Source: Rhizaria sp. SCN 62-66
Taxonomy: Eukaryota
NCBI GenBank assembly: GCA_001724265.1
Contig: MEDY01000269.1
Span: 1 to 42,266, forward strand
Direction of reading: 5' to 3'
DNA: 42,266 nt
A model generated the notes under the pieces. That model worked only from the letters and a program-made list of their open reading frames with translations, was not told the origin of the DNA and searched no databases. Shown piece by piece: positions 5,701 to 32,488 of the stretch. Numbering within the stretch: position 1 is the first letter of the stretch; each line of letters starts with the position of its first letter. A program made the position numbers and the translations under genes.

Positions 5701-8700
5701 CGACAGCGGGTGTGGCCGACTCTGTGATTGAGACAGCGATGGTGGCTGCAGCGTCTGCATGCGCGAGGGCGGGCGCGACTGCGAAAAGCCGCTGCCGGTC
5801 GACGGGCGCACGGACTGTGAGCCCGACTGCAGCAGCAGCTCGCGGTGCAGCTGCTGCCGCCTCTGCAGGAGAGATTGTGACTGTGACAGTGCGCTGGGGC
5901 CGGGGCCCATGACTGACTGGGAGCCAGACAGCGCCTGCGCGCCGGTCATCTGCGGCTGCGGCCCGGCGCCGGGGACAGGTAAATACTGCTGTTGTTGCTG
6001 TTGCTGTTGCGAGCGGCCCGCGGCGACGGACTGCGAGCCGTCCCGAGGGCGCGACTGAGTCGTGTGGTGGCGAGGGGAGAACGTGAACGCCGTCGCCACA
6101 GAACCACCGCCGGCATCAGTGCCAGCATCAGCGCCAGTAATTCCCGCAGTGCCGGTGGCGGCGCTAGCGCGGGGCGCTGGCGCGGAGAACAGCGGCTGTT
6201 GCTGGGACCGGGACTGAGGGCGCTGTGACGCGCTCTCGCGCTCACGGTCCCGGTTAAGGTCGGTGCGGCGCAGCTGGAGCCAGGGCGCCTGCGTGGCGCC
6301 GCGCGGCGAGTGCATGGGCGAGTGCATGGGTGAGTGCAGCGGCGTGGGGCGCGGGGTCGGCCGCGGCGTCGGCAGCGGCGTCGGCACGTTGCCCAGCACG
6401 CGCGGCACAGTGACCGGCACTGGCGCCGTGTGGGGCAGCACCAAAGCAGACAGCCGCGAGTGCGACTGCGTGTGCGCCAGCGTCGGCAGCGCGTGCCCGT
6501 GGCTCTGCCCGTGCGTGTGGCCGTTTTGGCTGTTGGTGTTGCTGCTGGTGCGGGAGAGTGGCAGCTGCGCAAACGGGTGCGCGTGCTGGTGCGAATGCGA
6601 CTGGGAGTGCGTGTGGTGCAAGTGCGTCTGATGAGGCTGCGTAGGGTGCGACCGTGTCTGCGAGCCGTGGCGCGAGAGCTGCGTGGCGAACGGCAGCGCG
6701 TTGGGAGTCAGCAGCGGTGACAGCAGCGCCGGCGTGCGCGCGATGTCGGCCGCCTCAGAGCCGTCCTCGTCTTCGTCCTCGTCGCTGCCACTGGCGCTGC
6801 CGCTGTCGCTGTCACTCTCGCTGCCGCTGCGGCTGCTGCTGTCACTAAGAGAGCGGACCAGGTCCCGGGCCGTCGGGCGCCGCCTGCGCCGCGCCCTCTC
6901 GACGACGGTCACGATGTCGCCCTCCCCGACAGAAAGTTTGTCGTTCGCAGCTGCAGTATCGGCAGCAGCGGTGGTGACGGGGACAGGGACGGCGCCGCTG
7001 CTAGAGAGGAAGTCCGCGGCGGAGCTGCTGCGGGGAGATACCGACGCCGAGTGAGAACCACCATGATTGCCGCCGCCGCCGCTGCCGCTGCCGCTGCCGC
7101 TGCGCAGAGCGGAGGGGGAGGTGGCCTGCGACAGCGACCCGCCGGAGAAAGAACCCGAGTGCGAGCGCGAGTGCGTGCCGATGGGCGAGCTAAACACCGG
7201 GCTCAGCACGGGGCTTAGCAGCATCATCGGCCGCCGGTATCCCCCGGCGCCGGTCAAGTGCGTGGCGGCGTAGCCTCCCGCTCTCGCTTTAGCCCCCGTC
7301 GCGGCGGTCTGCGGCGCCGCGCCCGAGGCCGGCGTGAAGGGCGTGACCGTGGGCGGTGGCGCCATGCGCGGGCTTGTCGGCAGCAGCAACTGCGCGGGCC
7401 GCCCGCCGATTGCGCGCGGGCGCGGGCGCGCGTCGATGGCCTTAGCAGCAGCGCTGCCGCCAGCTCCGATAGCCGTGGCCGTGGCCGAGACTGAAGGCTT
7501 GCGAATGCTGCCTGTGCTGCCGTCATCAAGCGGGGCCGCAGGGGTCGCGGTGTCTGTGACCGTGATCATGAGTCTATTGCTGTTGCTGTTGCTGTCACAT
7601 GCAGTCGAGACCGGCTCCGCTAGCTCCGCTGGCGGCGCTGGCGGCGCTGGCGACTGCGCCTGCGACTTGGACTGCGCTACCGTCACAGCCAGCGCCGCAT
7701 CCGCGTCGGCGCCGGCAGCCGCGTCGTCTGCGTCGGTCTTTGCGTGCGCGCGCGCGCTTGTGCGCGGCCTGAGTGTGAACGCGGTGTGGCGCGGGGAAGA
7801 TGGAGCCGTGGCTGCAACGCCGTAACCGCCGCGGCCAACGCTTGCCACATCGGCAGCGGCAGCAGCAGCGGCAGCGGCAGCGGCGGAGGCAGCGTCGGTG
7901 TCGGAGTCGGTGGTGGGCTGTTTGCTGATCATGTCGCTGATGCTGTTGCTGTTGCTGCAGCCGTGCGTCTCCACAACCTCAGCCTCGAGGCAAGGCTTCG
8001 CAGCAGTGCGGGCGCTGAAATCGCCCTCAGCTTCGCTGTTGTCGTCCTTGCTCATGTCGCGGCCACTGCTGCTGCGGGCAGAGCGCTGGCAGAGCGCCCG
8101 CGCCACGCCACCCCGCTCACTGCTGCTACTGCTGCTTCCGCCTCCACGGTGCGCCTGTGTGCGAGCCGGTGCGTGTGCGTGTGCGTGTGTAAAGCTAGCG
8201 GTGGCGTGCTGCGCGGCGACAATCGCGGGCACCGCGGCCGAGGCGGGGTGCGCCGTGACCGAGTTTGAGTTGGAACATGCGACTGCGGAGCACGCGACTG
8301 CGGGGCACGCAACGGCGCCGCCCGAAGTCGGGGCCTGGCTCTGCATGCTCTGGCTATATCCGTGACCGTGAGCGTGGCCGTGGTGACCGTGGCCGCTGTC
8401 GCTGAGGCCGTGCGTGTGATGAAAGTTCAGTCCGTGCGCAATAATGCTGCTGAGGCCTGTCGCCTGACTGGCCACAGCGTACTCAGCTCTGTGGCGATCA
8501 GTCGCACTCGCGGCCTCGCTGGTGCTGCCAGAGGCGCCGTGCCCATGGCCGGCGCTGGCGCTATGGCCGGTGCCTGTGCCATTGCTGGCGCTCAGGCTGG
8601 AGCCCACCGGCAGCGAAAGGCACTGTTTGAGCGCGGGCAGCGCGGGCGACGGCGCCAGGGACGACAACGACCGCGAATGCGCCTGCAGCTCGAGCTGCAG

Positions 8701-11331
8701 CTGCGACGGCGACGGCGACTGCGACAGCGATGGCGAGCACTGGGAGCGTTTTGACTGCGACTGCGGGTCCGAGTGCGACTGAGACTGAGTGCGCGAGAGA
8801 GACGACCGAGGCCTCTGCTGTTGTAAATGAGAGTGTGGTTGCTGCAGAAGCTGCGCCGGTGAGCCGTACACGAGTTCCCACCTTAGCGCCGCCGCCGCCG
8901 CCTCTGCCGCCGCCGCCTCTACGGCCGCCGCCTCTGCGGCGGACTGTGTGCCCGCCGCGTCGCCCCAGTACCCGCCCCGGTCGCCGCCCCGGTCAGAGCC
9001 TCGATAAGAATCGCGCTCTGCGTGGCACAGGTCCGGCGAATGGGGGGCAGTTGGCGGCGCGCCCGCGGGGCCGGCCGACGCAGGCTGCGACCGCGGGCCC
9101 AACGCATAACCGCCACCGCCGCTGCTGCGGTATGCCGACGCGGGAGTCAGTGCGACGGCGGCGGCGGCGGCGGCGGGCGCGGAGGGCGAAGGCGAGGGCG
9201 AGACCGAGGGCGCGGCCGACACGGGGGCCGAGGCCGTGACGGAGGCCGAGGCGGAGGTGACGGCGGGGTGGGTCGCGAAGGGCGACAGGAACACGGGATG
9301 GTGCGGCGGCGCCGCGTAGCCTTGATGGTGCTGCTGATGGTGATGCTGATGCACGGGCTCCTGGGCGGCTGGGGCCGAGTGTAAATAGTGTCCGCCGATG
9401 AAGCCGCCGCCGCTGTGGCCGCCGGGCCTGGCGTTGCGCGGTGTGAAGAGCGAGTAGACGGCGTCGTCGTTGCTCGTGTCGAACGTGTCCTCGTCGTCGT
9501 CGCCGCGCTCACCAGTTGTGCCTCTAGCGGTGTAACCGTAACCGCCTCTAGCGTTGTAGCCCCCGCCGCCAGTGCCAGTGCCAGGGCCAGCGCCAGTGGC
9601 GGCTCCGCCGTACTGGGAGCCGCCCGCGACGCCGCCGCCGGGCCTGTTATAGGCGTTGACGCGGCCGCCGCTGGTGGTCGTGACGCACCGGTTGCTGTTG
9701 CTGTTGTTGCAGTTGCCGCTGCTTGCGAACGCGCCCGGGGCAGCGCTCGCGGCGGCGGGGGCGGCGCCGGCGAGCGCGGGCGAGGTGTGCCGCGACTGGC
9801 TGAACTGGTACGGGTACTGCTGATGTTGCTGATGCTGAGTCTGCGGCCGGCGCAGGCTGCCGCGGCTATGCACGTTGTGCCCGAAGCCCGAGTGGCCGTG
9901 GGTCAAAGAGTGACCATGGGCGCTCAGCGCGTGACCATGATCGCTCGCCGCAGTCGGAGCAGCAGCAGCAGCAGGACTAGCGGCGGCAGGCACAGCGACT
10001 GTGGGCACAGCGGTGTTGTCTGCGCTGTCTCTGTCAGCGCCAAACGGTCCCTCGTCTGCGCCCGTAAAGGGCACTCTCGCGGCGCTGGTAAACGGCACAG
10101 CGAGCGGCGCGGTAACCGTGGGCACCGTGGTGTTGCTATCACCGGCACCGCGCGTCGGACTCTGAATCTGGGCACTCTGGACACTCTGGATACTGTGAAT
10201 GTGACTCTGGCTTTGGTTGCTCTGATTGGACGCGTTGGCGCTGGCGTAGCTGCTGTTGTACGCGTTGGCGTTGTACGTCGGGCGCGTGCGCGACGTCGCT
10301 GCCGTCGGCGAAGTCGCTATCACCTTGGGCGACGTCGTCATCGTTGTCGTCGTTGTGAACGGAGCCAGGTACACGCGCACGCCGCCGCTCGCGGGAACGC
10401 GTGGGTTGTAGCTGTTGGCAAAGTTGGCCGTACTCGCAAATGTGTTGTTACTGTAGTTATTGTTGTTATTGTTGTTGTTAGCGCCGAAGTGGCCGTGGGC
10501 GCCGGCGAGGATGGCCGCGGCGGAGGCCGTGGCAGCCGCAAAGGCCGAGGACGAGGATGACAGCGACGACGGCGTACCTGGCATCGGTCCGTTGTAGTTT
10601 ACGGGCGTGGCCGAGAGGCGCCGTGTGTGTGCGGGCGCGGACGATGCGGGCACCGGCAGCGTGTCCAGGTGCTGCTGCTGCTGCTGCTGCTGAGGCTGCT
10701 GTTGTTGTTGCGGGGGTGAGAAGCTGAACACGGGCTTGCGCACTTCATTCGCAGTATTAGCAAGCGTACTCCCATGTGTTACCCCTTGAGTTCCAGCGCC
10801 AGCGCCAGCGCCAGCGAGCGTGCCTGGGCCCGGGACAGCAGCGTTGGCAGCGCTGGCGGCGTTGGCGGCTGTGGCGTTGGCGACAGCGACGGAACCGGTG
10901 TCGGCAGTCGTGTTCGTCATCGGCGACGGCGACGGCGACGGCGATGGCAGCTGCAGCTGCAGAAACCACTTGGAGGGCGTTTTGAGCGGCGACTTCAGCT
11001 GCGACGGCGACAGCGACTGGGACTGCGAGTTGCTCTGCGACTGCGAGCCCGAGCTTGCGTACAGCGGCGACGGCAGCGGCAGCGGCGACGGTAGCGGCGA
11101 CGGGGACGGCGACGCCGCGGCCGAGACCGAGGCCGAGGCCGACGCGGGAACCGGCGCGGCGGCCAGCGCAGACAGGGCGGACGCGGCGGCGGCGGCGACG
11201 GGCATCGCCGCGCCCGTCTTGGCCGCCGCTAACCTCGCTTGGATCGCCGCTGCTGCTGCTCCTGGCGCTCCCGCTCCTGGTGCCGTCGCCGCTGCTGTTG
11301 CGCCAGCGTCCCCTGATGCGGCCGCCGCAAA

Positions 11332-11372
<41 letters not shown>

Positions 11373-12195
11373 GGGAGGGCAGCGCGAGGGCCGACAGAGA
11401 GCGCTTGCTGCCGGCGGCGGCAAACGACGTGCGCGCACGCTCACGCTCACGGTCATTGCCCGTTTTGTTCGCATCTTTGTTGCTGTAGCTCTTGTTGGTG
11501 CCTCTGTTGGCAGTGTAGTAGTTTTCCGCGTCGACGCGGCCTTCGCGGCCGTCGTGGCCGAGCACAGCGGTGTCGTGCTGGTCGTGGCCGCGGCTGCGGT
11601 CGTGGCTGTGCCCGCGGCCGTGGCCGTGGCGGCCGGGCGCGGGCTCCATCGCCGAGGCGTGCATATACAGCAGACGCTGCGATGGAGACTGCGAGAGCGA
11701 CAGCGGCGACGGTGCCGGTGCCAACGGCTTCAGTTCCGCGCCCGCGCCGGCGCCCGCGCCCGCGGCGACGCTAGTGGCGGCCTTTGCAAAAGGCGCGAGC
11801 AGGCCAGCGGCGTCGGAGGGCGAGGGGGCTTCGTCACCGGCGCCGGGCGGTGTGGCGGGGGCGGCCTTTGAGACCGGGGACAGCGCGAAGTGCAGCAGCA
11901 GGGACCGGTGGAAGGCGGGCCGGGGGCGCGGGGACGGCAGAGCGGCCGCCAACGGAGTTGGGACGCCGGGCCGCGGCGGTTGAAACAGAGTCGCGGGGAA
12001 GCCAGCAGCGGCTGTGGGAGCGGTGACAGTGGCCGCAGCAGAGGTTGAAACGGAGCCGGGTGCGAGGACCGTTGTGGTCATAAGGGGGTCATTCCGTGGT
12101 TTTGATGTGTTAATCAAGGTTTGAGGCGTTTTACGCGTGTCTGGCAATAGAATGCCAGGCTTGTCACGCTGAGAAACGTTTAGAGCGGAATCCAT
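2767..12195 (-). CDS. 3142-aa protein: about 2600 aa low-complexity N-terminal region plus C-terminal mitochondrial carrier (SLC25; UCP/dicarboxylate/oxoglutarate-like) domain
   Basis: Uninterrupted ATG..TGA ORF bounded by AT-rich DNA. Three carrier repeats: PLELTKVGRQL, PLDVLKVRLM, PADTIKTRLMNQ, each followed by a [EG]GVx[AG]LYxG motif. LLRQ and PNFLRVVPWQVVFFASYE are UCP-like. Carrier domain about 2770-4320. True start is uncertain. Confidence 0.85.
6300..6390 (-). repeat. Coding 12-bp tandem repeats encoding (PTP[LR])x4 and (HSP[M])x3
   Basis: PTPLPTPRPTPRPTPLHSPMHSPMHSP in the 3142-aa ORF. Confidence 0.75.
11332..11368 (-). repeat. (AGC)n trinucleotide run encoding poly-Ser
   Basis: About 12 consecutive GCT units on the + strand. 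Confidence 0.9.
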
Positions 12196-13874
12196 GGTGA
12201 CAGCGTCGCGAAACGCGTCAGGAAAAATAGAAGAGCCGGAACTGCACGCGTCGAGAATTAAGGAGGTTTAAGAGGGATGAGATTGTGGCGTCAAAATGCT
12301 CTTATCAAGAAATTCAAAGTGAAGTTATTGTTTTTACAACTTTGTGGTTGTCTAGAAAGCAATAATAATCCGACTGTGGCGAAATGAAGCAGGTAATGAA
12401 GAAGATACGACCAGCTCACCCCTGCCTCCAATCCCACCACAAAAGCCGCCTCGGCCAGTCGATTTGAGTGGCACTCGCTTCCAAGCCTCTTGTGTACAGT
12501 TTATCGTATGTCGATGGCTGTGTTGGTACAGTATATAATTTTCCAGTAGTCATCGTGTTTAATTCCGCGGCTAAAATAACAATGTTTGCGCTGTATAATG
12601 CATTGTGAAAGCTATTGTGCAAGTCAGATGCCTTCAGTCTGCCCAACGGCTACTCGAAAGAATTCCAGAGGGCGACCTCTCTGGAGGTCATGTGAGATGT
12701 GTCTGCAGTCAAACGAGCCATATTTGATTTTCGGTAATACTAAATGAATTTGCGACTGCCCTCAGCAAGTAAACTTATTGAGTCAAGGCTTTTGAGTGGC
12801 TAGAGTTCTCGATAAAAAGGAGGCAACACCAGATGTAACTTCCCAAAGCGAGTCACGTTACACGATGAAGTCACTGTATCACGATGAAACGTCCATTTGC
12901 GGATGTTAATCATTGCATTACAACATTATCATGTGCTCTAAACTTTTGTTTTATCTTTATCTAATGCATAATGATCAAAATGAGCTCTGGGGAATGCAAG
13001 AAAGTGCGATGTGGCATCTTAAAAGACTAACTCAGACTCACTGCAAGGAGTGACTTTCAGTCTGCTTTGGCGCAAAGCCGGTCATATGTACTGTTTAAAC
13101 CCTGCGGACACCCGACACTTGCTGACATCTCCCGCTCAGAACAAACTGTGACGGGTATCTAGTCTCAAAGTGTCCTGAGCTACCAGACGCTGCAGACCTG
13201 TTCAAGTTAAAAACCAAGAATACATCACGATAATAGATGTCGTTACATGCATAAGCGTGTGATAAATACATGACCTTCTTTGAAAAACGGGTGAACAATA
13301 TTGTCTAATAGATATATACGAGCGTTTAAGTGCTGGACCTGCGTTTATCGTTGCACTCGCGCTATGACAGTGTTTGTGGTGGCTGGCGCGAAGGTTTGGG
13401 GCAGATCAGAGGAGGTTTTGATACCAAGGGAAATGCAGCGATTAGGTGTTTCTGCGTGTGTCTATATAATGCGGACGCTAATGTACACACTTTTATTTAT
13501 CTTATTCCAAATTGACCGCACTTATTTTGCGGGCGTATCTGCTTGCCGATAGCGTGCACGCGCGAAGGATGCCTATCGGAAATGCTCCTCTCAACCGCGC
13601 GCTAGATGGCACTTCATCGCCGCATAACGCTGATTTTCGAAATACGGCTATATTTTCCGTGTTGTCCTTGATGTATTCTGCCTTCTCACAGTGCTCGTTT
13701 TTTCTCTCCTGTTTGTTAAACTGCTACCCAGCCTTTTTTCTTTCCCCTCTCGCCTCGCGCTTCGCAGTAACGCGAGCCTCCTCGCTTCTGTGCTCCTGCC
13801 ACCGCCGCAGCTTTGTGCCCCGGTCTCTGTCACCCTTCACTTGGCGCGGCTGCTGCGTGGGGCGACGTTCTGCA

Positions 13875-16800
13875 ATGGGCCAACAAGCCTCGCGTCCCGG
13901 CGGACTTGTTGAGTCGATCAAAAAGGGCACTCTTACCGAGTCCAAACTCAAATTCCTCCTCTCCGTACGTCATCCCTAGCTTTCTTAGACCTCTTTCAAA
14001 TCAAAAGCCATGTGCCCCTCCTTTTTGAAAACAGCTTTTGGGCCTATTTTTTTCTAACTGCCTTTTTAAACTTTCTTTAAACCCTACTTTATATGTGTGT
14101 ATCCGCATCTAAACACTCCTCCTCGGTCTTCCTTCCCTTGCTCGCGTACGTTCGCTCCCTCTCTGCTCAATTTGCTCTGCTCTTTTCGCTCTCGCTCGCG
14201 CTGCCAGAATGGCTACATCATCAACGAGGCGGACCTCCGCGGCCGCACGGCGCTTGTGCGCGCGATCATGCGCGACGACCTGGCGCTGGTAAAGCTGCTG
14301 CTGGCGCACAACGCGGACCCCCGCGTGCTGGACCAGATCCTCTCCTGGTCCGCGCTGCACCACGCCGTGGGCGGCAAGCACAAGGCCATCGTGGCCGAGC
14401 TGCTCAACAACCCGCTGGTGGCGCACATTACGCGGCCGCTGGTGTTTCACACGGACCGTGACGGCCACGACTGCTACCAGCTCGCCGCGCAGCGAGGCCA
14501 GGTCGAGACGTGCTGGATCCTCGGCTTCACGCGCGTGCTCCAGCTCTACCCTCGCGGCTTCGGCGAGGCCGCGCGCCCTGACCTGGAGCCCTACGTTGCC
14601 GCGCAGCTTCAGAAGGCCGTGTCGGCCGCTGCGAACAAGCACGTCGCCAAGACGTTCAAGTTCTTCCTGGGCGGCCTCAAAGCCACCGTCTACACAGTCA
14701 CCTGGCGCAAGAATGACCACATCGGCAACGACGCTGTTGCGAATAATAACAACAACGCTGCTGCCGGTGCTGCTGCTGGAAAGGCGCCCTCTCGGTCTCC
14801 CTCTCTCGCCCCTGCCCCCGCCCCGTCCCCCGCCGGGGCGAGTGCGATGCCGCCGCGCGTGTCTGTGCTGGCCGGCAGCGGCGTGTCATCCGCACCGCCC
14901 GCGCTGCCGCCAGTAATTCTGGTGCCCTGCACTGCGCCCTCAAGCTACCGCGCGCGCACACCGCACGCCCAGGCCGCCGCGCTCGCCGCGCCGGATGGCG
15001 ACGTGGCGCTTGTCACGGTGTCGCACCGGCGCGTGCGCTTGGCGGCCGACGGGCGCGGGCTCGTTATCACGCCCGACGCGGGCGGGCTGCTCAGCAAGGC
15101 CCGGGACGCTGAGTACCTGCCGTTCGGACCCGACACCAAGATCATTGAATGCCCGGGCCCTAACAGCGCCAACTCGAGCAGCAGCAACTTGGGCCAGACT
15201 GGCACCGGCGGGACCGGTGAGTCGCCGGTGCTGCGCGTGATCCTCAACGCCGACGTTGAGATCCACTTCGAGCTCACCGAGCCCACGGGCGGGTCTCTGT
15301 CGGCCGCCTACGCCGGGATGCGATCAGTAGTGGCGACCCTACTGCCGTACTACCGCGGCAAGCAGCGCTGGGACGCCTACGCCACGGCCGCCGTGCGCCT
15401 GCTCAGCGGCGTCGCCTCGGAGCGCCGCGGCGTGTGGCTGCTGCGCGAGCGCCTTGTCACGCTGCGCGCCGAGGTCGAGAACATTGTCCGCGCGGAGAAA
15501 TTTGCGGCACGCGGCGGGGACTACTCGACGGCCAAGAAGCTCAAGGCGCAGCGCCTCCGGATCGCGGCGGAGCACGACATGGTTGAGGAGCGCTACCGCG
15601 CCGCCATCGCGGCCGACAAGGAGCAGGAGCGCAGAAGCAAGGCCTCCGCCGCCGCCGCGCTCGTCGCTGCCAACAACAATGCTCCTGCTCCTGCTGCTGC
15701 TGCTGCTGCTGCTGCTGGTAACAACAATAACAAAAATGCACGCGGCAATAAGAACAACGCCAACAACGCGAGCGCGCAGGAGAGCGCGCAGGTGCGGGGC
15801 CCGCGCGGCGCCAACATGAGCGCCGTGATGCAGCTGCTGCAGGAGGGCGTGGACCTGCAGGACTTCCTCAGTAGCGAGATCCGCCGCGTGAGCGCCGCCG
15901 TGGCCGAGTACGAGGGGCTGCAGCGGCAGGCCGGCAAGGAAACCGAATGGGACCGCGCGCAGTCGGCGCACCTCGCCAAGCAGCCCTTCCTGTTTGCGCG
16001 CGAGCTGTTGTCGCGGTGCCTGGCCGACACCGAGGCCGTCATGGCCTACGCGGGCCGCGGCGACACGCCGCCCGGGACGCCGCAGATCAACGCCTCGGCC
16101 GTGCCGGTCGAGGGGCTCGTGCACCGCCCGCTGCGCGCGGACGGGACGCCGCTGTACGGCGAGGAGGACGAGGACGACGCGCACGCGCTGGTCCTGGCGC
16201 CGCTGCCGCAGAGCGAGAGCGAGCGCGACCGCGCCGCGCTGCCGCCGCTCGACTTGGGGCAGGGGCTCGCCGACATGGGCCTGGGCCTGGGGTTCGAGGA
16301 AGAGGAGGAGGAGCATGGTGTGCTGCCGGCGGGCGACATGGCGCAGGAGCGCGCGCAGGCGGCGTATCCGTCTGTGCCGCGCGTGGCCGTGAACGCGGCC
16401 GCCGTCAACAACGCGCAGTACAACGCGCAGTACAACTCGCAGCAACAGCAGTCGCAGTATGTCAACAGCACTGTGCCCGCTGCGGCGGCCGCGAGTGCGA
16501 GCGGCTTCAAGCTGGCGCCGATGCAAGACCCTTTTAGCAACAGCAACTACAGCAACAATAACAACAACGTGAACGTGAATGTGAATGCCGACGTGCAGAA
16601 CATGAGCCGCGTCATCGTCCTCCAGGACACGCCCACCGCTGCTCACAGCAACAACGCGGTGCAGAACACGGTGAGCGCCCCCGCCGGCGCGTCAACGCCC
16701 GCCCGCATGAGTCTAAGTACCAACGCAGGCCCTCTAAGTACCAGCGCGCGGCCATCGCCGTCGGTGCCCTCACGGCCCGCGCGCGTCACGCCCCCCGCCT

Positions 16801-17753
16801 CCACAGTCGCCAACAGCAGCGGCAACAGCAAAGAGGCCAACGTGAACAACATCAACAGCGCTGCCGTTGCTGCGGGCGCCGGCGTGGCGGCGATGACACC
16901 TTCGGCGTCGCCCGTGCCGTCTCTGTCGTCCTCGCGCGCACCCAGCGCAGCCTCCGCCTCTTCCGCCGTCTCAGCCATCGCCGAACAGCAGCAGCAGCAG
17001 CAGCAGCAGCAGTTTGGTAAAGAGGAGGAGGATGAGGACGCGCTGGCCGCCGCCGTGGCCGCATTGCCCTCCGCCCGCGCCGCCAACACCAGCATCAGCA
17101 ACAGCGGCAAGAACGCTGTCAGCGGCAGCAGCAGCAGCAATGACAAGCCCAAGAAGGTGTTGATGCTCGCCGACGGGCCCGCGCCCGCCCGCGCCCCACG
17201 GCCCCGCACTCAGCCGCAGCATCAGCAGCAACAGCAGCAGCAGCAGGGCGTGAACTACGTCTGCGCCGGCGTCCCCGGCGCGATCGTCTCCAGCCCCGGC
17301 ACCGTGCGCGCCACGAGTACCGCGGGCGTGCCGGGCGCGATCCCGCCCCCCGCGCTCACGGTCGCCTCGTCCGGCTCCGTCCAGAACCACGGCCACGGCC
17401 ACCACCACGGCCAGCAGTATCCCGGGCCCAACGCGGGGTCTCGGATGGGCAGCTTCGCCCACAGCGGCAGCCACTTCGAGAGCGATCCGGCCCCGCCGAC
17501 GTACGACGAGGCCATGTCGCTGTTCCACAACGACGCAGTCTTCTTTCCCGAGCCGCCGCCGCCGCACGGAGACCAGCCCGGCTACCACGGCGACGCCGCC
17601 GCGGGGGGCGCCGCGCTGGAGGCCGAGGCCAAGACCAGCGACGGCAACGGCGACGGCAGCGGCGGTGGCAGTGGCAGTGGGTTTGCTGCGGACGAGTTCG
17701 CGGCCTTCTTCTCGCTGCCGCGGCACCAGGAGGTGGCCGAGGAGGAGGAGTAG
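13875..17753 (+). CDS. Ankyrin-repeat protein with predicted N-myristoylation; exons 13875-13964 and 14208-17753 (about 1211 aa if the first TAG is a stop; about 2067 aa to TGA 20321 if both TAGs are read through)
   Basis: MGQQAS start (MGxxxS). Ankyrin repeats DLRGRTALVRAIMRDDLALVKLLLAHNADP, SWSALHHAVGGKHKAIVAELL, DRDGHDCYQLAAQRGQVE. UVR-like helical motif EKFAARGGDYSTAKKLK; PPTY motif. Confidence 0.85.
13965..14207 (+). other. Spliceosomal intron (243 nt, phase 0) of ankyrin gene
   Basis: GTACGT donor, pyrimidine-rich body, GCCAG acceptor where GC-rich coding sequence resumes. Confidence 0.8.
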
Positions 17754-20321
17754 GGTGATTTGCCCCCCCTGATCAACAGCAACAACAACAGCAACAATGC
17801 CAACAACAATGACGGTCTCGAGAACGAGGTCGAGGACGGCGACGTCGCGCCTATCCCGGCCTTGTCGTCTCTTATGCAGCCGCAGCCGCCGCGCGCGCCG
17901 CTGGTGGTGAACGTGTCGGCCTCGCTGGCCGACGACGGCGCGGCGCTTACGCCCCTCGACCGCAGCAACAGCAACGTCAACAACAACTGCAACAACAGCA
18001 AGAGCGACAGCCTCGACGGCGCTGCGCTCTACGGCCTCCCGCCCCTCACCGACGACGACAAAGGCGGCAAGGGCAAGGGCAAGGGTAAGGGCCAGCAGAA
18101 CGACAATAGTGACGGCCACAGCGTCAACAGCAACAGCCGCAGCGCGCTGCTGTCGCCCGCGGCATCGATGGCCATCTTCAACGCCATCGCGCAAGTCACC
18201 GCAGACACGCCGGAGCCCGCCAACGCTGACGCCGACGCCAACGCCAATGCCCACGGCAACGCTGACGCTTAGTCTGCGCCTGAGGCCGCATTCGCTGCCG
18301 CTGCCGCGGCGCCCGCGCTATCTGCGACTGCGACGCGGGGCAACGCGCCGGTGCCGCTGTCGATGGCGGCCTCGCTGGACGGCCACGGCCTCAGCCCTCG
18401 CCAGCGCAACCGTGGCGTCGACCGCGACGGAGACCGCGACGGAGACGGAGACGGAGATGCTGAGGGAGACAGAGACGACGAGTTCGCCGCTGGCTTAGGC
18501 CTCGGTTTGGCGCCGGTGTCGGCCTCCGCGGGCGGTGACGGGCTCTCTGGCCTCTCCGGACTGACCCCGCCGCCGCCGCAGCGCCGCGCGCCGCCGCAGC
18601 AGCCGCTGCAGCAGCAGCCGCTGTCGGCGCGCGCGCTCTCGGGCTCCGGCCGCGCCTTCGCCTTCAACGTCAACGCCAGCAGTCTGAACAACAACGGCAA
18701 CGGCAACGGCAACGGCACTGGCAGCGGCGGCGGTGCGGTGATGGCCGCCCCGTTCCCCACCGGCGGCGACTCGCCCGCGGCGTCGCTGCACGCGAGCGAG
18801 TTTTTTGCGCAGGAAGAGGGCTGCGGCGCCGGCCGCAGCGCAGTCTCCGAGGGCGACGGCGGCAGCTTCTACGCCGCCTCCGCCGCCGCCTCCGCCTCGG
18901 CCGCCGCGCACACCGCGCACGCGGGAGGGCACAGGCAGTCGGCGTCCTCGGCGCACTCCGCCGCCGCCGCTGCCGCCGCTGCTGCCGCGTCTGGGGGCGT
19001 CGTGAACGCTGTGACGCACTACGATGAGAGCGACAGCGAGGACGACGACGATGAGGAGGAAGAGGAGGGCGCTCCCGCTGCCTCCGGCTCTGCCGCCGCC
19101 GCCGCCTGCGCTGGCTCCGGCGCCGGCAAGGGCGGCCGCCCGCGTCTGCAGCCCTCGCCCTCCGCCGCCGCCGCCGCCGACTCCACGAGCGGCAGCGGCA
19201 GCGGCGGCGGCGGCAACGGTGGGTCTGGCTACGCCACCGCGGCGTCGGGCACGGCGCGCACCCCCAGCGCCCGCTTCGGGCCCCGGCTCGCGCCCTCCGC
19301 AATGGCGCGCGTCCCAGGTGCGCCCGGCGGCGCGATTGGCGGTGCGAATGTCGCCAGTAGCAGCGGCGGGAATGCGAACCTGCTGGGGGACGACGCGGAC
19401 AGCGTGGACGGCGGCGCCAGCAACAGCAACAGCAGCAGCAGCACCGCGGACATCGCGGCGAGCGTGCGCGCCAACGCCAAGAAGCGTCTGGCCGCCGCGC
19501 GCGCCGCGGGGACTTGGGACGGCCGCCTGCCCTCCGCCTCCGCCTCCGACTCGTTCTCTGAGAACACCGCCAGCGGCGGGCAGCCGCGGCTGAAGCTGGG
19601 CGGCGCTGCTGCGAAAGGCCACGCTGCAGCTGTTAACAACAACAACAGCAACAGCAACAGCAGCGCCAGCATGGGTTCCGACATGGGCATGGGCGACAAC
19701 GCCCTCGGCCAGTTCGACGGCAGCAACAACAACAACGGCAATAACACCGGCAATAACACCGGCGACAACGGCGATAATAACGGCGCGATGGCCGCGATCG
19801 CGGGCCGGCCGACGCTGGAGCCGGTCGAGCTGGCTGTGAGCCCGAGTGCCGCGGCGTCCGTCTCGATCAGTGCTGTGGACGACGCGGTGGCCTTCGCGGA
19901 CCTGCTGGGCCACGCGCAGTCGACGGCCAGCTACGACACCATGTTCGGGGACGCCTTTAGAGCCACGCGCGCGGCCAACGAGAACGACAAGAGCAACCAC
20001 AATCCTGTCAACAACAATAGCTCCTCCGCTAAGAACAACAACAAGAGCAGCAGCAGCAGCAGCAGCAGTGTCCAGGCTGATAACGCTGACAACGAGAACA
20101 GCAACAACAGCAACAGCAACAGCAACAGCGCAAGCGCAACCACTGCCGGCAGCGTGGGCAGCGCGTCTAGCGGCGGCAAGACCGACGCCAGCGCCAGTGG
20201 CGCCAGCGCCAGTGCGAGTGCCAGCAGCGGGGCGGGCGTGGGCAGCGGGGTGGACTTTGAGTTCGACTTCGACGCCTTCGCGGGAATGCAGCCGGCGGCG
20301 GCGCACGAGGCCGCCATCTGA
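17754..20321 (+). CDS. In-frame coding-like extension of the ankyrin gene beyond TAG 17751-17753, with a second in-frame TAG at 18270-18272, ending TGA
   Basis: Same frame as the upstream exon, same AAC/AGC/GCC/GAC-rich codon style, no AT-rich spacer. GC content falls only after the TGA at 20319-20321. Confidence 0.55.
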
Positions 20322-21299
20322 CGACTCAGTGATCGGAGTGCGACTGCCAACCGCCATGGGGCGGGGCTGGTAGAGATTGCCCTCTTCTTAACCTTAACGC
20401 GTCGTCGTGAGCTTTTGTCCGACACCGCTCATTTGACTCGGCGGAACACGCGTGGCGTGATAACGGATCATTGCGAAACTTGTAGTCATCACTATTGCTC
20501 ACCGTCGCAACTCTGGACTTCTGTTATGTTAGCTTTTGACGCAACGCAAACGGAAGCTCTTGAGGAGCGTGTGTGATGCGTGTGCGTGCATTGCTGCTGC
20601 CATCGCTGCTACAATCACGCACATCACCATAACAATCTATTATTTGCTTTTTTGTCCTGTACTTGTATATTTTAATCGTCATTGTTGAAAATGAAATCAA
20701 TAAAGATTAAAAACTAATCGTGAAAGACAAACTTAAAAAGATGCTTATTGATACGTAATGCAGTTTAGAATTATGCTCAATGAGTAAAACGCGTTTTGTA
20801 TTTGTTGACTTGAAAAAACATCATTACACTCACTGACTCACTTGGAGTGAGTCAATCACTCGCACACATTGTCACTGCTTATAAATACGGAATGAACAAA
20901 GCAGATGAGCAAACACAGCGACAAATACGCAAGTTCGCGAGCGCAACTTGAAAAACAACACACACACAGCAGATCAGTGGCGGCTTCGGCTAGCGCCCGC
21001 TGTGGACTGGCACTGACGACCTCAGGTCCTCACCCACATGGCGGCTTAACTTTCCACAACTGCCTACTTGAACACGCCTGAGCACCGCCCGACTTAAGCG
21101 ATACTGAGGCTGTGAATGTGGCATAACGTCTATCGAACGGCGTCTTTAACATCCGACTAGACGACTTAAACATTGAACTCTAACTCAGCATACCAGCGAC
21201 AACATATTGTCTAACCTACATTGTGTGCGAACCCACTCACACAACGCACATAGATACTTTGTGACATACTGAGGCACTTAGCGGCGGCAGTCCTGGCTC

Positions 21300-23112: not shown

Positions 23113-24599
23113 ATGTTCGCTTCCAAGCGCGCTGTGAGCACCGTCGTCAAGCGGTGCATGTCCACCAAGGCCATCGCCGACACCGACATCTGCATCGTGT
23201 CCGCCGTGCGCACCCCGCTGGGCTCGTTCGGCGGCGGCCTCGCGTCGCTGACGGGCGTGCAGCTGGGCTCGCACGCCATCGCGGCCGCCGTCGAGCGCGC
23301 CGGCGTGTCGCCCGTCGACGTCTCTGAGGTCATCATGGGCAACGTGCTCTCGGCCAACCTGGGCCAGGCCCCCGCGCGCCAGGCCGCGATCGGCGCCAAG
23401 CTGCCCGAGGCCACCGTGTGCACCACCGTCAACAAGGTCTGCTCCTCGGGTCTCAAGACGATCATGTACGCGGCCAACGAGATTGCGCTTGGCAACTCTG
23501 ACATCGTCGTCGCCGGCGGCTTCGAGTCCATGTCCAACGCGCCCTACTACGCGCCCGCGCTGCGCAACGGCGCGCGCATCGGCGACACGCAGATGCTCGA
23601 CGGGCTTATGAAGGACGGCCTCACCGACCCCTACGGCAAGTACCCCATGGGCAACTGCGCCGAGGTGTGCGCCGACGAGATGAGTTTCTCTCGCGCCGAC
23701 CAGGTACGCCGACGAAAACAATGATATCCACGTCGCTTTATCAATTTACGTAGTATAACGCTTATTTTATATCTTTAAATTGCACTACTTGATTGTCTCT
23801 TGCACTAGAACATGTGTTCAAATAATGCATTTCTCACTCTATATGTTTTTCTTTCATATTCTTGCCATTCGATTCATTCTCTCTTGCATCCGTTTGTTCC
23901 GCGTTTATTTTGTAGGACGCCTATGCCGAGGAGTCTTACCGCCGCGCGCAGGCGGCCATCACCGCGGGCAAGTTCGTGTCCGAGATCGCCCCCGTGACGA
24001 TCGCGGGCAAGAAGGGCGCCGTGACCGTGGCCGCGGATGAGGAGGCCTTCAAGGTCGACTTCTCCAAGATCTCCTCGCTCCGTCCCGCGTTCAAGCACCC
24101 CACGAAGCCCGAGGCGCCGCTCACGGTCACCGCGGCCAACGCGTCCGTGCTGTCTGACGGCGCGGCGGCGCTGGTGCTCTGCTCCGGCAAGACCGCCAAG
24201 GCCAAGGGGCTGACGGTGCGCGCGCGCGTGCTTGGCCACGCGGACCACGAGCAGGCGCCCGTGTGGTTCACCACTGCGCCCGCCAAGGCGATCCCCAAGG
24301 CGCTGGCTAAGGCGGGCGTGAAGATCGAGCAGGTCGACAAGTTCGAGGTCAACGAGGCCTTCTCGGTCGTCGCGCTGGCCAACCGCAAGCTGCTCAACAT
24401 CGACCCCGCCAAGATCAACGTCTACGGCGGCGCCGTCTCGCTGGGCCACCCGCTCGGCGCCTCGGGCGCGCGCATCGTCGTCACGCTGCTCTCGGCGCTC
24501 AAGCAGGAGAAGGTCAACGGCGGCTCCGGCATCGGCGTCGCGGGCATCTGCAACGGCGGCGGCGGCGCCTCGGCCATCGTCATCGAGTCCCTGGAGTAA
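23113..24599 (+). CDS. ACAT1: Acetyl-CoA acetyltransferase (thiolase II, ACAT1/ERG10 type), probably mitochondrial; exons 23113-23703 and 23916-24599, about 424 aa
   Basis: RTPLGSFGG, GQAPARQA, catalytic NKVCSSG, GGFESMSN, NEAF, GHPLGASG, CNGGGG; Arg/Ser/Lys-rich presequence MFASKRAVSTVVKRCMS; TAA stop. Confidence 0.95.
23704..23915 (+). other. Spliceosomal intron (212 nt, phase 0) of thiolase
   Basis: CAG|GTACGC ... TTTTGTAG|GAC; splicing restores SRADQ-DAYAEESYRRA. Confidence 0.92.
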
Positions 24600-24929: not shown

Positions 24930-27900
24930 TTAGCGTTTGTTGTCGCTCACGAAGAAGTTGTTAAGGTAGCTGGCCACCTTCTCGAAGCGCCACTCCGGGT
25001 GCCACGCGCACTGCGCCTGCTGCTGCTTCATCTTACCGTCGCTGTCGCCGCTGTTCTCCTCACCGTCGTCATCGCTATACTCGACGCCGCTCTCGGCGTC
25101 CGCCACCGCCGCGGCCGCCGCGGCCGCCGCGCTGGCCTCGGCCTCTGCGGCCGCTGCGGGGCAATGCGCGGGCCTGCGCTGCGCCCAGCGGCAGTCCCTG
25201 CACGCGGCCTGCGAGGGAAAGAGCGCCTTGGGGAAGACGGGGTCGCCGGCGCGGTGCGCGGCCTCGACCCCGTGCAGGCGCTCGTTGACGCTGTTGTGGG
25301 TCGCCCATAGCCACAACGCGAGCTGCGCAGACGGCAGCCGCACCTCGGCCGCCGCCGCCGCCTCGAGCGAGACCGGTCCGCCCACTGCCGCCCCGGCGGG
25401 GCCGTTGCCGGTGTCGGCAGCGGGAGGGTCTGGGCGGGTGCGCGAGGGGGCGAAGAGGGGGGCGAAGGCTAGCAGCGGCACGTGCGCGTTGCGCGAATAG
25501 CCCAGGAAGTGTGTGCGGCACTCGTTGCAGAGGAAGAAGTGCGTCAGATACGCGCGCACAGTGTGCATGAAGCTGGCCACGGGCGCCGCGCCACCAGCCG
25601 TTGCCGCCGTCATCGCCGCCGCCGCAGCATGGAGACCGCTCCCGCTGCCGACCGGGGTGGCCGAGGTGTGGGATGCGAGCGCGGCGGCGGCGACGGCGGT
25701 CTCCTGCCCGCGCGGCCAGCGGTGCGCGGCGCCGTGTAGCGTCAGCCAGAGCCCGCAGGTGTACCCGCGCGTGTGCGCGAGGGACCCGCGGCACTGGCGC
25801 CAACGGCCGGCCTCCCAGTCCGCCCACGCGCGCCCGCCCAGCTGCCAGGAGCCGGGGAACTCGGCCAGCGCGGCCGCGGGCGCCGCGGCGGGCGCCGTGG
25901 CGGACCGCAGCCCGGCCGGCGTCCACAAGTGGGCCTGGCCGGCGAGCGCGCCGGGGACGTCGCGGCCGCCCGCGCCGAGACCCAGCACGTTGTCTGGGTG
26001 CGGCGGCGGCACATACCGGTGCAGCGACCCGCGCAGCACGGCGAGCGAATGCCGCAGCGCGGGCGCGGCGTCGGGCGTGGCCGTGGAGAGCACGAGCAGC
26101 ATGTGCGAGAGCGACTCGTAGCACGACGTGGCGTGAAGCAGCGCGGCGTCCTCGCGCGCGCTGAGCAGCCCCGCGCGGTACTGCACCCACCACGCTTCGC
26201 CGTCGTCCACCGCAACCGCGTCCGTAGACTCGGACTGCGAGTCCGCCGCAGAATCAGAGTCAGAGCGCGCGGCTGCGGCTGCTGCAGAGGCGGAGGCGGC
26301 AGCGACCTGGGAAGTGAAGGACGGGCTGGCGAGGGCGGCGACGGCGGCCAGTACCGTCGTCGCGTTCCCGGTCACGACCCCGACCCGCGCACTCGCAATG
26401 GCAGCCGCAGCCGCGCTCTTACTATTAGTGTTGGGGAAGAGGACCGAGAGCGAAGGCACCGGCACCGGCGCGGGCGCGCCGTTGCCGTCGGTCTTGCGAC
26501 TATTTCCGAGCGCGGCCGCGGCCGCGGCGGCAACGGCCTCGACGTCCGCGGCGGGCTCGGCCTGCGCGGCCCTCGCCGCCGCATCGACCGCCGCCGCCGC
26601 CGCCATGGTGCCCGTGGTGCCGTCGCGCAGCGCGCTGAGCAGGCGCAGCGCGGCGCCTGCGGCGGCGGCGCGCGTAGAGGTGACGCGGCCGCCCAGCGCC
26701 GCGCGCCGCAGCGCCGCCTGCAACACGCCTTCCACAGCGGCGGCAGCGCTGGGGGCAGCGCTGGCGGCGGCGGCGGCGGCGGAGCGCGCGAGGGTAGAGG
26801 TGCCGCTGGCGTGGGAGCCGAACTGGGCGTTGAAGTCGGCCATCTTGACCGCGCAGGCCGGGACCGCCTCGCGCAGCGCGATGGAGAGGTACAGACTCGA
26901 GTCGAAGGTCGAGGCCACGGGCGGGTACCCATCCGCGAGCGTCGCCGGACGGGACTCGGCCTCTGCAGACTGCGAAGGCGACTGCGACGGCGACTGTGAG
27001 CTCGCACTGGGGAGCTGGGTCGCCGGCAGCAGCACGGGCGCCGCACTGGCACTCGGGTTAACGCTCGCAGTATTGGCGTTGGCCGCGGTGTTTGACGCGG
27101 CGTGCGCCTGCTTCTCAACCGTGGCGGCGACCATGGCGTCGAACTCGGCCTCACTGTGCAGGATCCCCGCTGCGAGCGGTAGGGTGCGCGCGCCGCCCGC
27201 CGCGGCCAGGAACCGGTGCGCGGTGAGGCGGTGGCGCGACCAGCCCTCTGTGGCGGCCGCCGCGGCCGGGTCGGCCGGCGCGGGCGCCCAGGGCAGCCGC
27301 AGCAGCGGGGAAGGCGCGAGGCCCAGCGCGGACCGGCGAGGCGAAAGACTGGGACCGCCAGTCTGCGCCTGCGCCTGCAACGGTGACTGAGACTGAGACT
27401 GAGACGCTGCGGCGGTGGCGGTGTTGACCGGCAGGGGCGCGGGCGCGGCGAGCGCGCGCGTGACGGCGCTGTAAAACCGGTCGCCGACCCGCGCCGCGCT
27501 CGCCGACTGACCGGGAGCGTCCGCAGAGTGGCCGTGGGCGGCGGAGGACGCGTGCACGTCGGGCGGCGGCGCGGCCGAGGCGGCGGCAAGCGGGCCCACG
27601 AAGGGGTCATGGAGCAACGCCACTGCGGCCGCCAGCGCGAGCCGCGCGCCCACGGTCACGTTCTGCGCCAACACGCCGCTCGCGAGGACGCTGGCGCTGT
27701 CGCCAAGGGCCACAGCGAGGGGGAAGGACAGCTCGCGCGAAGGCAGCAGCGGCGTCGCGGGCGTGGGCTGCGACGCCACGTGCACGTGCCGGGCACTGAC
27801 ACCGCCCGCGCCGGGGGAGCTGAGACCGCTCGCGAGCGCGGCCGCGACGGCGGTGGCGAAGGACGCGGCCGGCGCGCCAACATTGTGCACGCCGACGCTG

Positions 27901-30900
27901 TGCGCAGCGCCGGTGCTGCCGGCGGCGCCCTCGCTCGCCGTGAAGTTGGCAGACGGCAGGGGCAGGTAGTGGGCCCGGAGCCGCGCCGCCGCGGCCGCCG
28001 CCGCGCCCCAGGTCAGCTGCGCGCGCGCGTAGGCGGTGAGCGACCTGACGCGGGCCGGCGCAGGGCGGCCTGGCTGAGCGAAGTCTCCGTCGTCATCGTC
28101 GTCGTCGTCGTCGTCGCTGTCGCCGTCGAGCTCGCTGCGGCCGCCCTCCTCGTCGTCCTGGCCGTCGCCGCTGCCACTGCCGGGCTTAGCGTAGCGCCAG
28201 AGCATGCCATCCTCTGCGACCGCCGCGCGCGCCATGAGCTCGCCGACGGTCTCCAGCACGCCCTCGGCCGACCGCTCACCCGGCAGCGTCAGCGGCGTCA
28301 GCGCCAGCGGCAGCGCACGCGGCGCCGCCGAGCCCACCGTCGCGGCCCTCATCGCCCGACCGCCGGAGCCGTCAGCGGTGGTGCCCGGCGCCGAGGACGA
28401 GGAGGAGGACGAGGTAACTGCGCTGCCCACAGTCGCCGTCGCCGTCGCCGTCGCCGTCTTAGGGTTCGCGCCAGCGCCAGCGCGTGGCAGCGCGGCGGTG
28501 GGCGCAACGTGGGTGGTGTAGGACGCCGCAGCGAAGACCTTGGCCACGGACGAAAGGCCCGCGGCGACGACGCCGCCCGCGCTGGGGGCCAGCGCGGGGT
28601 CCCACGTGTTAAAGTAGGTGAATCCGGGCGCGAAGTCGCTCCCGGCGGCCTCCGCGACGGCCCCCGCGGTGCCCGCGCCAAAGCCGCCGTCGGCCCCAGA
28701 GCCAGAGCCAGCACTCGAGACGGACACAGTGCGCCCCTGAGACTGCGCCTGCGCCTGTGAGTGGAACTGCGCGGCCATGGCGGCGGCGAGCTCTGCGTCG
28801 GCGGCGTCGGTTTCCCGCGTCCGCGGCCGCTGGTCGCGCGCGACAACAAAGCCCTGCGGGACCCAAGCCACGCCCGCGGCGGCGGCCGTCAGCGGCGTGT
28901 GCGCGAAGCCGTTCTCGGCGAACTCAAGCGCGGCCTGCCACACGTCAGCGGGCGCGACCAGCAGGGCGGGGTAACCGCGGATCTGGAACAGCTCGCACAG
29001 CGAGGCGCCGGAGCCGGCGCAGTGGACCTTGGCGATGCGTACGGCGCCGCGGCGCCGCGTGTTGAGCGCCGCGCCGAGCCGCTCGACGGAGCGCGCAAAG
29101 CGTTGGCAGTGGCCGCACCACTTGGCGTAAAACTCAACCACGACCCACGGCCGCACGCGCCACTGGGCCGGCGCGGTACTGGTGACGGTACTCGTGACTG
29201 TGGTGGTGGTGCCTGTGGGTGAAGCCGGGCGCTTGTTGTTGTTGTTCGTGCGATGGTTCGCGAGCGAAAAGGGCGAGAGTGCAGGGAAGAGGCTCAGAGG
29301 CGGGTTTTGCACCGCGAAATCTGACTGCCAGTCAGCAGCAGCAGCAGAAGAAGAAGCAGCAGCGGAAGCGGAAGCGGGTAGCTCGGTGAAGAGCGTGGGG
29401 CTCTCTGTGTACAGCCTGTTGACCGCAGTGTTGTTGCCGTCAAACAAAGAGAACGGCTTGACAACAGGCCACACGCTCTGGCTATGGTCATCGCGGCTCT
29501 GGGCCGCGGTCACGGCCGCGGCGGTCACGGCGGCGGCGACAGCGGCGGCGGCGGACGGCAGCGCCCGCTCGGCCTCCGCAGCGGCCTCGGCGCCTGCGGC
29601 CAGCACGGCGGCGTAGCGCGCCAGCGCGGCCCGCTGCGCCGCCGTCTCTGGCCCGCCCGTGCCCGCCGCGGCCGCCGCGGCGGCGCGAGCAGTCTTGGCG
29701 TTGTCGCTCACGGGCGCGGGCGCGGCGGCCGCGGCGGCCAACGCGGCGGCGACGTCGGCGGCGGGGACAAAGGCGGCGTCGGCAAGGATGGCGGCGAAGA
29801 CGGCGCGCGCGGTGGGGAGCGTGAGCTTGGGCACCCAGAGTGCAGGGAAGAGGTTCTCGCTCGGGTCGCCCAGCGCCGACTTGGGCACCTTTGGGGGAGA
29901 TATTCGTTGCGATATAAGCCAATAGTGATGATAAAATAATGAATTTGTGTTATAAATATTATCTAATCAGAATAAATACAAGAATTAAAGCCTGTGACAC
30001 TAACTTCGTAGAGATATAGTCCATATTGTGTTTTGTGATAAAACTTCGTGACGTACGATGAACTGGGGCCCGAACTGCGACTGGTGCCGATACAGCACCG
30101 GCCGCTCCCCTCCGCCGCTGCCGCTGCTGTCGCCCGCAGTCGCCGCAACGGCCGGGGCCGGGGATGAGGAGAAGCCGTAGAGTGCGGCCTCGGCAGCAGC
30201 GTCTGCGTCGTCGCCGCCGGCACCGCCGCTGGAGCTGAGGTAGCTGCCGATACCGCCGCCAGCGCCAGCGCCAGCGCCAGCGCCAGCGCCGGTGCCAGTG
30301 GAGGCGGGGCCTTGCTCGAGCAGGGCGCTGAGCGCGGCGCCGGCGGCCACGTCCGCGGCGCCCTGCGAGGGCCCATAGTAGGCCCCCCCCCCACTATGGG
30401 CGCCGGCGGGGAGCGGCGCGAGCGGTTTGGGGAGGAAGACAACGAGCGCGGCCCACGTCAGCGTGCCCAGCAACAGCGCGGCGGCGACAGCGCCCGCAAT
30501 GATCAGCCCCATCGACGACGACGACGACGACGCCAAGACACCGTTGCCGCCGTTGCCGTTGCCGTTGCGGCCGCGGCCGACGCGGCGGCGGCCAGCAGCG
30601 CTGCCAGCGACGCCGGGGGCCCCTGCGGCCCCGGCTGCGGCGGCTGCGGTGAGGTTCGTGGTCGAGTTGGGCCCGTAGCCGGCGCCGAGCGGGCTGAGCG
30701 CGACGCCGGTGCCGCTGAGCGAGCCGGGCAGCAGGCCTGAGGCTGACACGGAGGCCGCGGAGTTTGAGTGACCGTGGGCAGAGTGACCGTGGGCGGCGGG
30801 CGGCGGGGAGGAGGCCCGCGAGCGGACGAGGTGGGCGCTGGCGTTGGAGCTGTTGAGGACGCTGTTGGCGCCGTGCGGCACCACGTTGTTCACGCCGAAC

Positions 30901-31769: not shown

Positions 31770-32488
31770 TCGGGGTGGCTGGCAGCTGCTGGGGCGCAGT
31801 GCTGTAGCGGGTCACAAACTCAGCTGCAAGGAGTTGAAATGTTACTATAGAGTTTTAACTGTGCCTTTGTAGCGGCAAGAGAGGAATAGAAACCAGGAAC
31901 GGGTTGTTTGAGAGTAGGTCGGCGAAGGAATAGCGAAGTGAAGGGAAGTTGTTGATGTTTTGCTGTTAAGCAAAAAAAGACGCTGTATCTCATTAACACA
32001 ATGAGTTTTCCAGATATAAATTGAAATACAAGCATTTAATAAAAATTAAATATATAATAGAGAGTGATAAGTGACATTGATGATTAAATCACGAAGTAAA
32101 CTGTCTTTGCAAATGCTGACTCTGCACAATCTGACGAAGCCGCAGCAGAAGCACGCCACCACAAAGACGCACGAATTGTAGAAAATGATATCCCTTACTG
32201 TGAAATAGATGTATATAGAGTTGAAATTTAAGGCGCCGCAACTGATTATAGATGTGAAATATTATAGTCTAGCAAAAACTGTGTATGACTTGTTTTATTC
32301 GTTGAAATCATACGTTTTATGAAGTGTCACCTTGTGGTTAAGCGCGCTGCCTCTGCAGCAGTGACAGCACAAGGCGCGCGCTTGGCTGCATGAACAGGCC
32401 CTGGTCAGAAAGCCGCGCAACAGCTGTGTACGGTGGCTGCGCGGTGAAGACTCAGGTTCTAGTAGGAGGACGCCAGAGTGCTGAGACG

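Follow-up and report, generated by a model that had tools for sequence, protein, structure and literature searches.

Two in-frame TAG codons in an ankyrin-repeat gene of a GC-rich protist contig: most likely a truncating mutation, rather than a changed genetic code

Is a eukaryotic gene that runs on past two TAG codons still translated to its end, or has its tail been cut off? The question is raised by contig MEDY01000269.1 of Rhizaria sp. SCN 62-66 (assembly GCA_001724265.1), which was analyzed over its whole length of 42,266 nucleotides (nt) and is called the window here. It is a GC-rich eukaryotic contig with genes of about 70% GC and AT-rich spacers and introns, and its sequence is present in sequencing runs from bioreactor, wastewater, and sludge. 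On the forward strand, to which all coordinates of the gene refer, one reading frame of an ankyrin-repeat gene (14208-20321) passes a TAG at 17751-17753 (TAG1) and another at 18270-18272 (TAG2) before it ends at a TGA (20319-20321). The interruption is most likely a truncating mutation, rather than a changed genetic code.

The stop-to-stop frames 14070-17753, 17754-18272, and 18273-20321 are all in the same frame and end in TAG, TAG, and TGA, respectively. TAG1 is preceded by four GAG codons and followed by GGT GAT (GAG GAG GAG GAG TAG GGT at 17739-17756). TAG2 has the context GAC GCT TAG TCT (18264-18275), with GCG as the next codon. None of the 854 codons 3′ of TAG1 is a TAA or a TGA. Antisense frames in this region are likewise open, for 630 and 448 codons. 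Because the DNA is so GC-rich that long antisense frames stay open, an open frame alone is weak evidence. The evidence for coding, however, points to this frame and no other, on both sides of the TAGs. GC contents at the first, second, and third codon positions are.68/.53/.86 in the part upstream of TAG1 (piece 1),.61/.46/.87 between the TAGs (piece 2), and.65/.64/.86 after TAG2 (piece 3). We trained a codon log-likelihood on the 8,647 codons of eight other window genes, which themselves score 0.14-0.55 bits per codon. In the gene frame the three pieces reach 0.39, 0.58, and 0.49, and in the remaining five frames no more than 0.15. In 150-nt windows the GC content is 0.64-0.75 across both TAGs and 0.27-0.54 past the final TGA, and the windowed GC shows no AT-rich spacer at either TAG. 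A first-pass annotation, made from the letters, had described three pieces in one frame split by TAG only, some 850 codons without TAA or TGA, an unchanged codon style, the lack of an AT-rich spacer, and a DEFAA motif on either side (FAADEFAAFF and RDDEFAAG, both of which we found). All of this is borne out by the figures above.

The three pieces are best read together with the only relative that was found. A word-indexed search returned one relative (P0002, 1,455 residues), the product of the same gene as L001, which was the sole hit of our second metagenome scan with an alignment as the query; a first metagenome scan with a single-protein query found no relative. An exhaustive profile search of 1.84 billion representative proteins returned the cluster of the gene itself and P0002, and all other matches were to ankyrin repeats alone. 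The L001 open reading frame (ORF; 105-4637) is uninterrupted, intronless, and about 1,500 codons long, and it ends in TGA. Over its first 697 residues, exon 2 shares 57% identity with this ORF. Beyond this region we found short motifs shared within disordered sequence and nothing longer. Six of these motifs are colinear between the window protein and L001. PPTYDEAMS (window residue 1095, L001 residue 891) lies upstream of TAG1. The other five lie after TAG1, i.e., PRAPLVV (1224 and 981), AIFNAIA (1319 and 994), and, after TAG2 as well, GTWDG (1761 and 1247), AFADL (1889 and 1349), and MFGDAF (1906 and 1365). With a score of 636, the best colinear chain exceeds all 30 block shuffles (416-572) and the reversed sequence (512). 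Taken singly, 12-mers exceed the 95th percentile only marginally (38 and 41, compared to 35 and 39, respectively), and composition-corrected BLASTP recovers short anchors only, with an E-value of 0.002 for PPTYDEAMS and 0.44-4 for the rest. The case for tail homology is therefore built on the anchors as a colinear group and on the chain score. A global MAFFT alignment of the tails misplaced the anchors and was set aside. Judged from these sequence comparisons, the three pieces are one ancestral gene and the tail is ancestral. That the pieces form one gene had been claimed beforehand, and it agrees with L001, which encodes homologs of all three in one uninterrupted ORF.

The TAGs themselves are genuine. 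The window was compared with sequencing runs (X2, X3, X4, and X7) by way of assembled contigs. The X2 and X3 contigs (17253-18717) span both TAGs with no differing letter and no gap; their contigs and depths are identical and the two runs were thus counted as one data set. A contig of X4 (17253-18721), which comes from a separate study, also spans both TAGs with no differing letter and no gap, and differs from the window at nine other positions in the gene. Within the 90% protein cluster, the full-length ORFs (three of three, from three assemblies) terminate in ...EVAEEEE at TAG1; the fourth member is a 285-residue fragment. Both TAGs are real and are common to all assemblies seen. Relative to its ortholog, the gene has a premature stop that is real in the DNA and fixed in all of these assemblies. 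The base-call error that the first-pass annotation had considered is ruled out by the independent contigs and by the three ORFs ending at TAG1. No TAG-free allele or relative holding piece 2 was found among proteins of 302-2000 residues, and no protein spanning the TAGs (read as X) was found among proteins of 204-651 residues. The search with the N-terminal part covered 649-2067 residues, and a stop-free ORF (about 2,071 residues) would lie just outside this range. An exact look-up of the four possible tail ORFs with ATG starts returned none in the protein collection, although gene callers may choose other starts.

The gene begins upstream of the frame described above. Exon 1 (13875-13964) has 30 codons and encodes MGQQASRPGGLVESIKKGTLTESKLKFLLS, starting MGQQAS, in which 26 of the 30 residues match, by eye, the start of the L001 ORF. 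The MG...S start resembles an N-myristoylation signal. A spliceosomal intron of 243 nt follows (13965-14207, GC 0.46, GTACGT...CCAG). The exon junction is confirmed by L001, which is intronless and reads ...KFLLS|NSFIINE... straight through. The start that had been placed at 14097 is therefore wrong, and the gene starts at the ATG at 13875. Exon 2 up to TAG1 (14208-17750) comprises 1,181 codons. They encode ankyrin repeats, a central region that is conserved, and disordered sequence with PPTYDEAMS. Pfam places Ank families at residues 55-151 of the stop-to-stop frame, and Pfam and PDB searches of the gene product detected the ankyrin repeats near the N-terminus and nothing else. The conserved region after the ankyrin repeats (14208-16300, L001 210-2300) includes DVALVTVSHRR, EYLPFGPDT, WDAYATAAVRLL, and TEWDRAQSAH.AKQPFLFARE. 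Since it has no Pfam or PDB match and occurs in only two clusters among the 1.84 billion representatives, we regard it as a lineage-restricted domain of unknown function. Piece 2 (17754-18269) has 172 codons that either were once coding or are still translated, and it includes the anchors PRAPLVV and AIFNAIA. Piece 3 (18273-20318) has 682 codons and makes up the rest of the disordered tail, with the other three tail anchors. The TGA marks the end of the ancestral frame. The sequence after it (20322-20576, the end being approximate) is probably a 3′ untranslated region (UTR). It is found in X7, a polyA library, and also in X4 at 20402, with variant rows at 20402-20543.

The reading that we favor, and to which we give about an even chance, is a young nonsense truncation with an orphaned tail. 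The gene encodes a lineage-specific protein that combines ankyrin repeats with a long disordered tail, of which the ancestral 854 codons would have been cut off by the genuine nonsense codon at 17751. The simplest origin of TAG1 would be a one-base G-to-T change of the fifth GAG in the GAG run. Translation would then end at 17751 to give a protein of 1,211 residues (30 + 1,181), and the old tail would be retained as a 3′ UTR of about 2.6 kb. In TAG2, which follows 173 codons later, we would see the onset of neutral decay, if the order and age that we infer for the mutations are right. Such a truncation must be young, since the tail has no frameshift and has not lost its codon bias.

Several observations are consistent with a truncation. 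TAG2 lies inside the stretch that TAG1 would silence, and this clustering fits a truncation (P is 0.08 if TAGs are spread evenly over the roughly 10,700 codons of the window). No other gene of the window is affected: there is no TAG in the 8,647 codons of the eight other genes. We found no readthrough context at UAG GGU GAU or UAG UCU GCG, in comparison with the stimulatory consensus. Folding of the 100 nt that begin at each TAG was no stronger than that of shuffled sequences (z = 0.23 and 0.86), as with control stretches. The stop and the extension are not conserved jointly in relatives, as L001, the only relative found, is uninterrupted. That both stops are TAG weighs little, because 84 of the 110 single-base changes that create a stop in the tail yield TAG. 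Like a young nonsense truncation elsewhere, the gene has a premature stop relative to its ortholog, the stop is fixed, a further stop lies downstream, and TAG is the codon expected mutationally.

Other observations weigh against a truncation. There is no decay in the tail besides TAG2. It has 854 codons without a frameshift, TAA, or TGA, and its GC at third codon positions (GC3) and log-likelihood are at least those of the upstream part. The tail thus differs from that of a usual young truncation, in that its codon bias is kept and its single-nucleotide polymorphisms (SNPs) are mostly synonymous. Of the possible single-base changes in the tail, just 1.43% create a stop, and a second nonsense mutation before any frameshift is therefore not the likeliest path; its odds are roughly 0.1-0.3 if, as we assume, frameshifting indels are a few percent of substitutions. 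Four SNPs separate the window from X4 in the tail, and three of them are synonymous when read in the old frame (the neutral probability of at least three of four is 0.05-0.12), compared to three synonymous and two non-synonymous SNPs upstream of TAG1, and these numbers are tiny. A 3-base length variant at 20199 keeps the frame, but sits in a trinucleotide-like repeat. In addition, a lone TAG terminates no gene of the window. The argument from the intact frame has to be discounted, because this case was picked for its intact frame. The first-pass annotation had held a nonsense mutation followed by decay to be equally possible; we rate truncation as somewhat likelier, and saw no decay beyond TAG2. 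The polymorphism at 20199 is a CCA insertion or a loss of 3 bases within a GCCAGC/GCCAGT repeat, and was seen in X2/X3, X4, and X7.

A possible alternative, to which we give less credence, is that UAG terminates poorly, by way of a suppressor or near-cognate tRNA or a weakened release factor, and that a protein of about 2,067 residues is made through both TAGs. TAG might then be tolerated as a rare and nearly neutral codon in unconstrained disordered regions. The state of the tail is what such leakiness would leave: 854 codons free of frameshifts, TAA, and TGA, 0.58 and 0.49 bits per codon in its two pieces (at or above the upstream value, and within or above the 0.14-0.55 of the reference genes), three synonymous SNPs of four, and, past both TAGs, undamaged anchors shared with the relative. 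Sequence beyond TAG2 is covered by contigs of X4 and of X7, the polyA run. On the other hand, the eight other genes, much of whose sequence is equally low in complexity, have no TAG in 8,647 codons; the two TAGs that do occur are within 173 codons of each other in one tail, for which P is the same 0.08 under an even spread. Neither a stimulatory context nor an RNA structure accompanies them. Two readthrough events multiply, so the yield of full-length protein would be low unless readthrough were efficient.

Termination in the window can be read in favor of a leaky UAG. The eight genes end in TGA (four), TAA (three), and TAG (one), and in the sole other TAG-terminated gene (33107-38689, forward strand) a TAA is the very next codon, which makes a tandem stop at 38687-38692. 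Unbacked TAG thus ends none of the eight, but eight genes are too few to give a census any statistical power. The window yielded no tRNA with a CUA anticodon; its only tRNA gene is a tRNA-Pro(AGG) (39077-39148, reverse strand), and a single window cannot show genomic absence. No eRF1 gene was found in the window either. The full picture, in which this uncultured and intron-poor wastewater protist reads UAG inefficiently, TAG drifts into disordered tails, TAG terminators are backed by a second stop, and the 854-codon tail is translated, would be an early and ambiguous stage of UAG reassignment, and we consider it rather doubtful. The first-pass annotation had proposed that UAG is a rare sense codon or is read through twice. 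Of this proposal, a leaky or read-through UAG stands as a rival beside truncation, while a sense code of a known type does not.

Programmed readthrough specific to this gene, or splicing or RNA editing that removes the TAGs in a minority of transcripts, is improbable. C-terminal extensions are made by readthrough in the replicase of tobacco mosaic virus (UAG CAA UUA), in murine leukaemia virus gag-pol, in Drosophila, and in mammals. As in these systems, a coding-like extension follows a stop codon in the same frame. Unlike them, the gene has two stops, in the contexts UAG GGU and UAG UCU, with no structure (z of 0.23 and 0.86, as above) and with no stop in L001. There is no conserved readthrough site, since L001 has no stop at these places. 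As for splicing, in-frame GT..AG pairs do exist at both TAGs (60 around TAG1 and 34 around TAG2), including a 30-nt GTAGGG...AG candidate at 17750-17779, and a rare form could escape notice because contigs display the main form only. The introns known from the window have other properties. Three were seen, of 243, 212, and 168 nt, with GC contents of 0.31-0.46, and all of them begin with GTACG. None of the in-frame candidates around the TAGs has a GTACG donor, and their GC content is 0.52-0.71. Moreover, the X4 contig crosses both TAGs without a gap, whereas another X4 contig (record 17) begins to fit exactly at the acceptor of intron 1; it fits from 14208 and its 239 preceding letters do not fit there. 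A start at 14208 is the pattern expected of spliced cDNA, yet X4 was rated "probably DNA."

Introns that would hold the TAGs in all transcripts were considered as well and were rejected. The surroundings of the TAGs are coding-like, with a GC content of 0.59 in the approximately 120 nt around TAG1 and 0.72 around TAG2, the in-frame candidates there lack a GTACG donor, and the X4 contig is continuous, with the rating of that run to be kept in mind. A joint from 17140 to 17774 (TG..AT, with sides of 21-22 letters) lies in AAC/CAG repeats and was taken as a repeat artifact. A look-alike of the TAG gene occurs elsewhere in the window, where the ORFs 30000-31811 and 24930-29966 (reverse strand) share a frame across an in-frame TAG and TGA. 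It is ordinary, because both stops sit in an intron of 168 nt (29889-30056, reverse strand, GC 0.31, GTACGT...AAAG), the length of which is a multiple of three. The gene around this intron has thioredoxin and Erv1/Alr domains and is sulfhydryl-oxidase-like.

The RNA evidence on splicing is no more than suggestive, given the rating of X4 and a contig of the polyA run X7 (14047-14340) that contains intron sequence. X7 does cover 18390-18714 as well as sequence beyond the TGA. No organism-specific X7 contig across either TAG was found among those listed. An A-rich loose end of X4 at 17794, about 40 nt past TAG1 (two records, agreement 0.57), lies in an AAC repeat. There may be a poly(A) site at 17794, just after TAG1, but the loose end is probably repeat cross-matching and was not taken as one.

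Full reassignment of UAG as an ordinary sense codon is very improbable, and the window alone comes close to refuting it. Two known cases are described in PMC5304391. In the rhizarian exLh (UAG = Leu), 71 genes contain 384 in-frame UAGs; in Iotanema spirale (UAG = Gln), a fornicate metamonad and not a rhizarian, 126 genes contain 204. Known UAG-sense protists have 1.6-5 in-frame UAGs per gene, and the UAGs of exLh and Iotanema are largely at conserved positions and UAG is never a terminator (PMC5304391). The gene in the window resembles these codes insofar as a UAG is in frame, UAA and UGA end the genes, and there is no unbacked TAG terminator. TAG alone interrupts the frame, TAA or TGA ends seven of the eight window genes, and the eighth ends in TAG TAA. 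The resemblance goes no further. Those codes have many UAGs at conserved residues (PMC5304391), whereas here there are two in one unalignable disordered tail. In the eight other genes, no TAG occurs in 8,647 codons, which include the conserved thiolase, mitochondrial-carrier, and thioredoxin domains, and the 1,181 exon 2 codons that precede TAG1 likewise have none. The absence of in-frame TAG from the rest of the window had been noted in the first-pass annotation, which nonetheless offered a UAG-as-sense nuclear code; set against the 384 and 204 UAGs of the known cases, a code of that kind finds no support here. Comparison with L001 gave no reliable alignment column for either TAG, and thus no amino acid can be inferred for them. 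In-frame stops inside expressed genes are also described for Blastocrithidia nonstop (PMC12153298) and for Amoebophrya (PMC12005148), protists whose stop codons serve as sense codons as well as terminators. In Blastocrithidia the code is reported to be changed as a whole (PMC12153298), unlike here, where one gene of the window is affected.

Least credible of all is an artifact or a mis-parse, i.e., a mistake made in sequencing or assembly, or pieces that belong to two or three adjacent genes, given that independent contigs and three assemblies have the same sequence and that L001 encodes every part within a single ORF, the anchors being colinear.

With a dead tail, the gene would be an ordinary young truncation. 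It would then serve mainly to caution against taking an intact frame downstream of a stop for recoding in GC3-rich genomes, because most nonsense mutations there give TAG and the off-frames stay open. If the tail is translated, the organism shows the ambiguous intermediate that models of stop-codon reassignment assume and that is rarely observed. The organism occurs in accessible bioreactor and sludge communities. The gene family has only two clusters among 1.84 billion representative proteins, which suggests that its lineage of eukaryotes is poorly sampled. Activated sludge is home to a more divergent relative of the organism, as an X7 contig at 14540-14582 has six differences in 43 bases, five of which are synonymous.

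Elsewhere in the window, an open frame of 3,166 codons occupies 2767-12267 (reverse strand). Its only Pfam match is to the mitochondrial carrier, in five stretches, the best of which (residues 2840-2953) is near the C-terminus. Either some 2,800 mostly low-complexity residues precede the carrier, or the frame contains unseen introns, or two genes have been merged. The TAG-terminated gene at 33107-38689 carries an S-adenosylmethionine (SAM)-dependent methyltransferase domain. An acetyl-CoA acetyltransferase (thiolase) gene at 23113-24599 (forward strand) has a GC3 of 0.91-0.96 and ends in TAA. It is split by an AT-rich intron of 212 nt (23704-23915, forward strand), at which the Pfam Thiolase_N match breaks at model position 173/174. 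An Atlas search with the thiolase exon returned bacterial thiolase clusters only.

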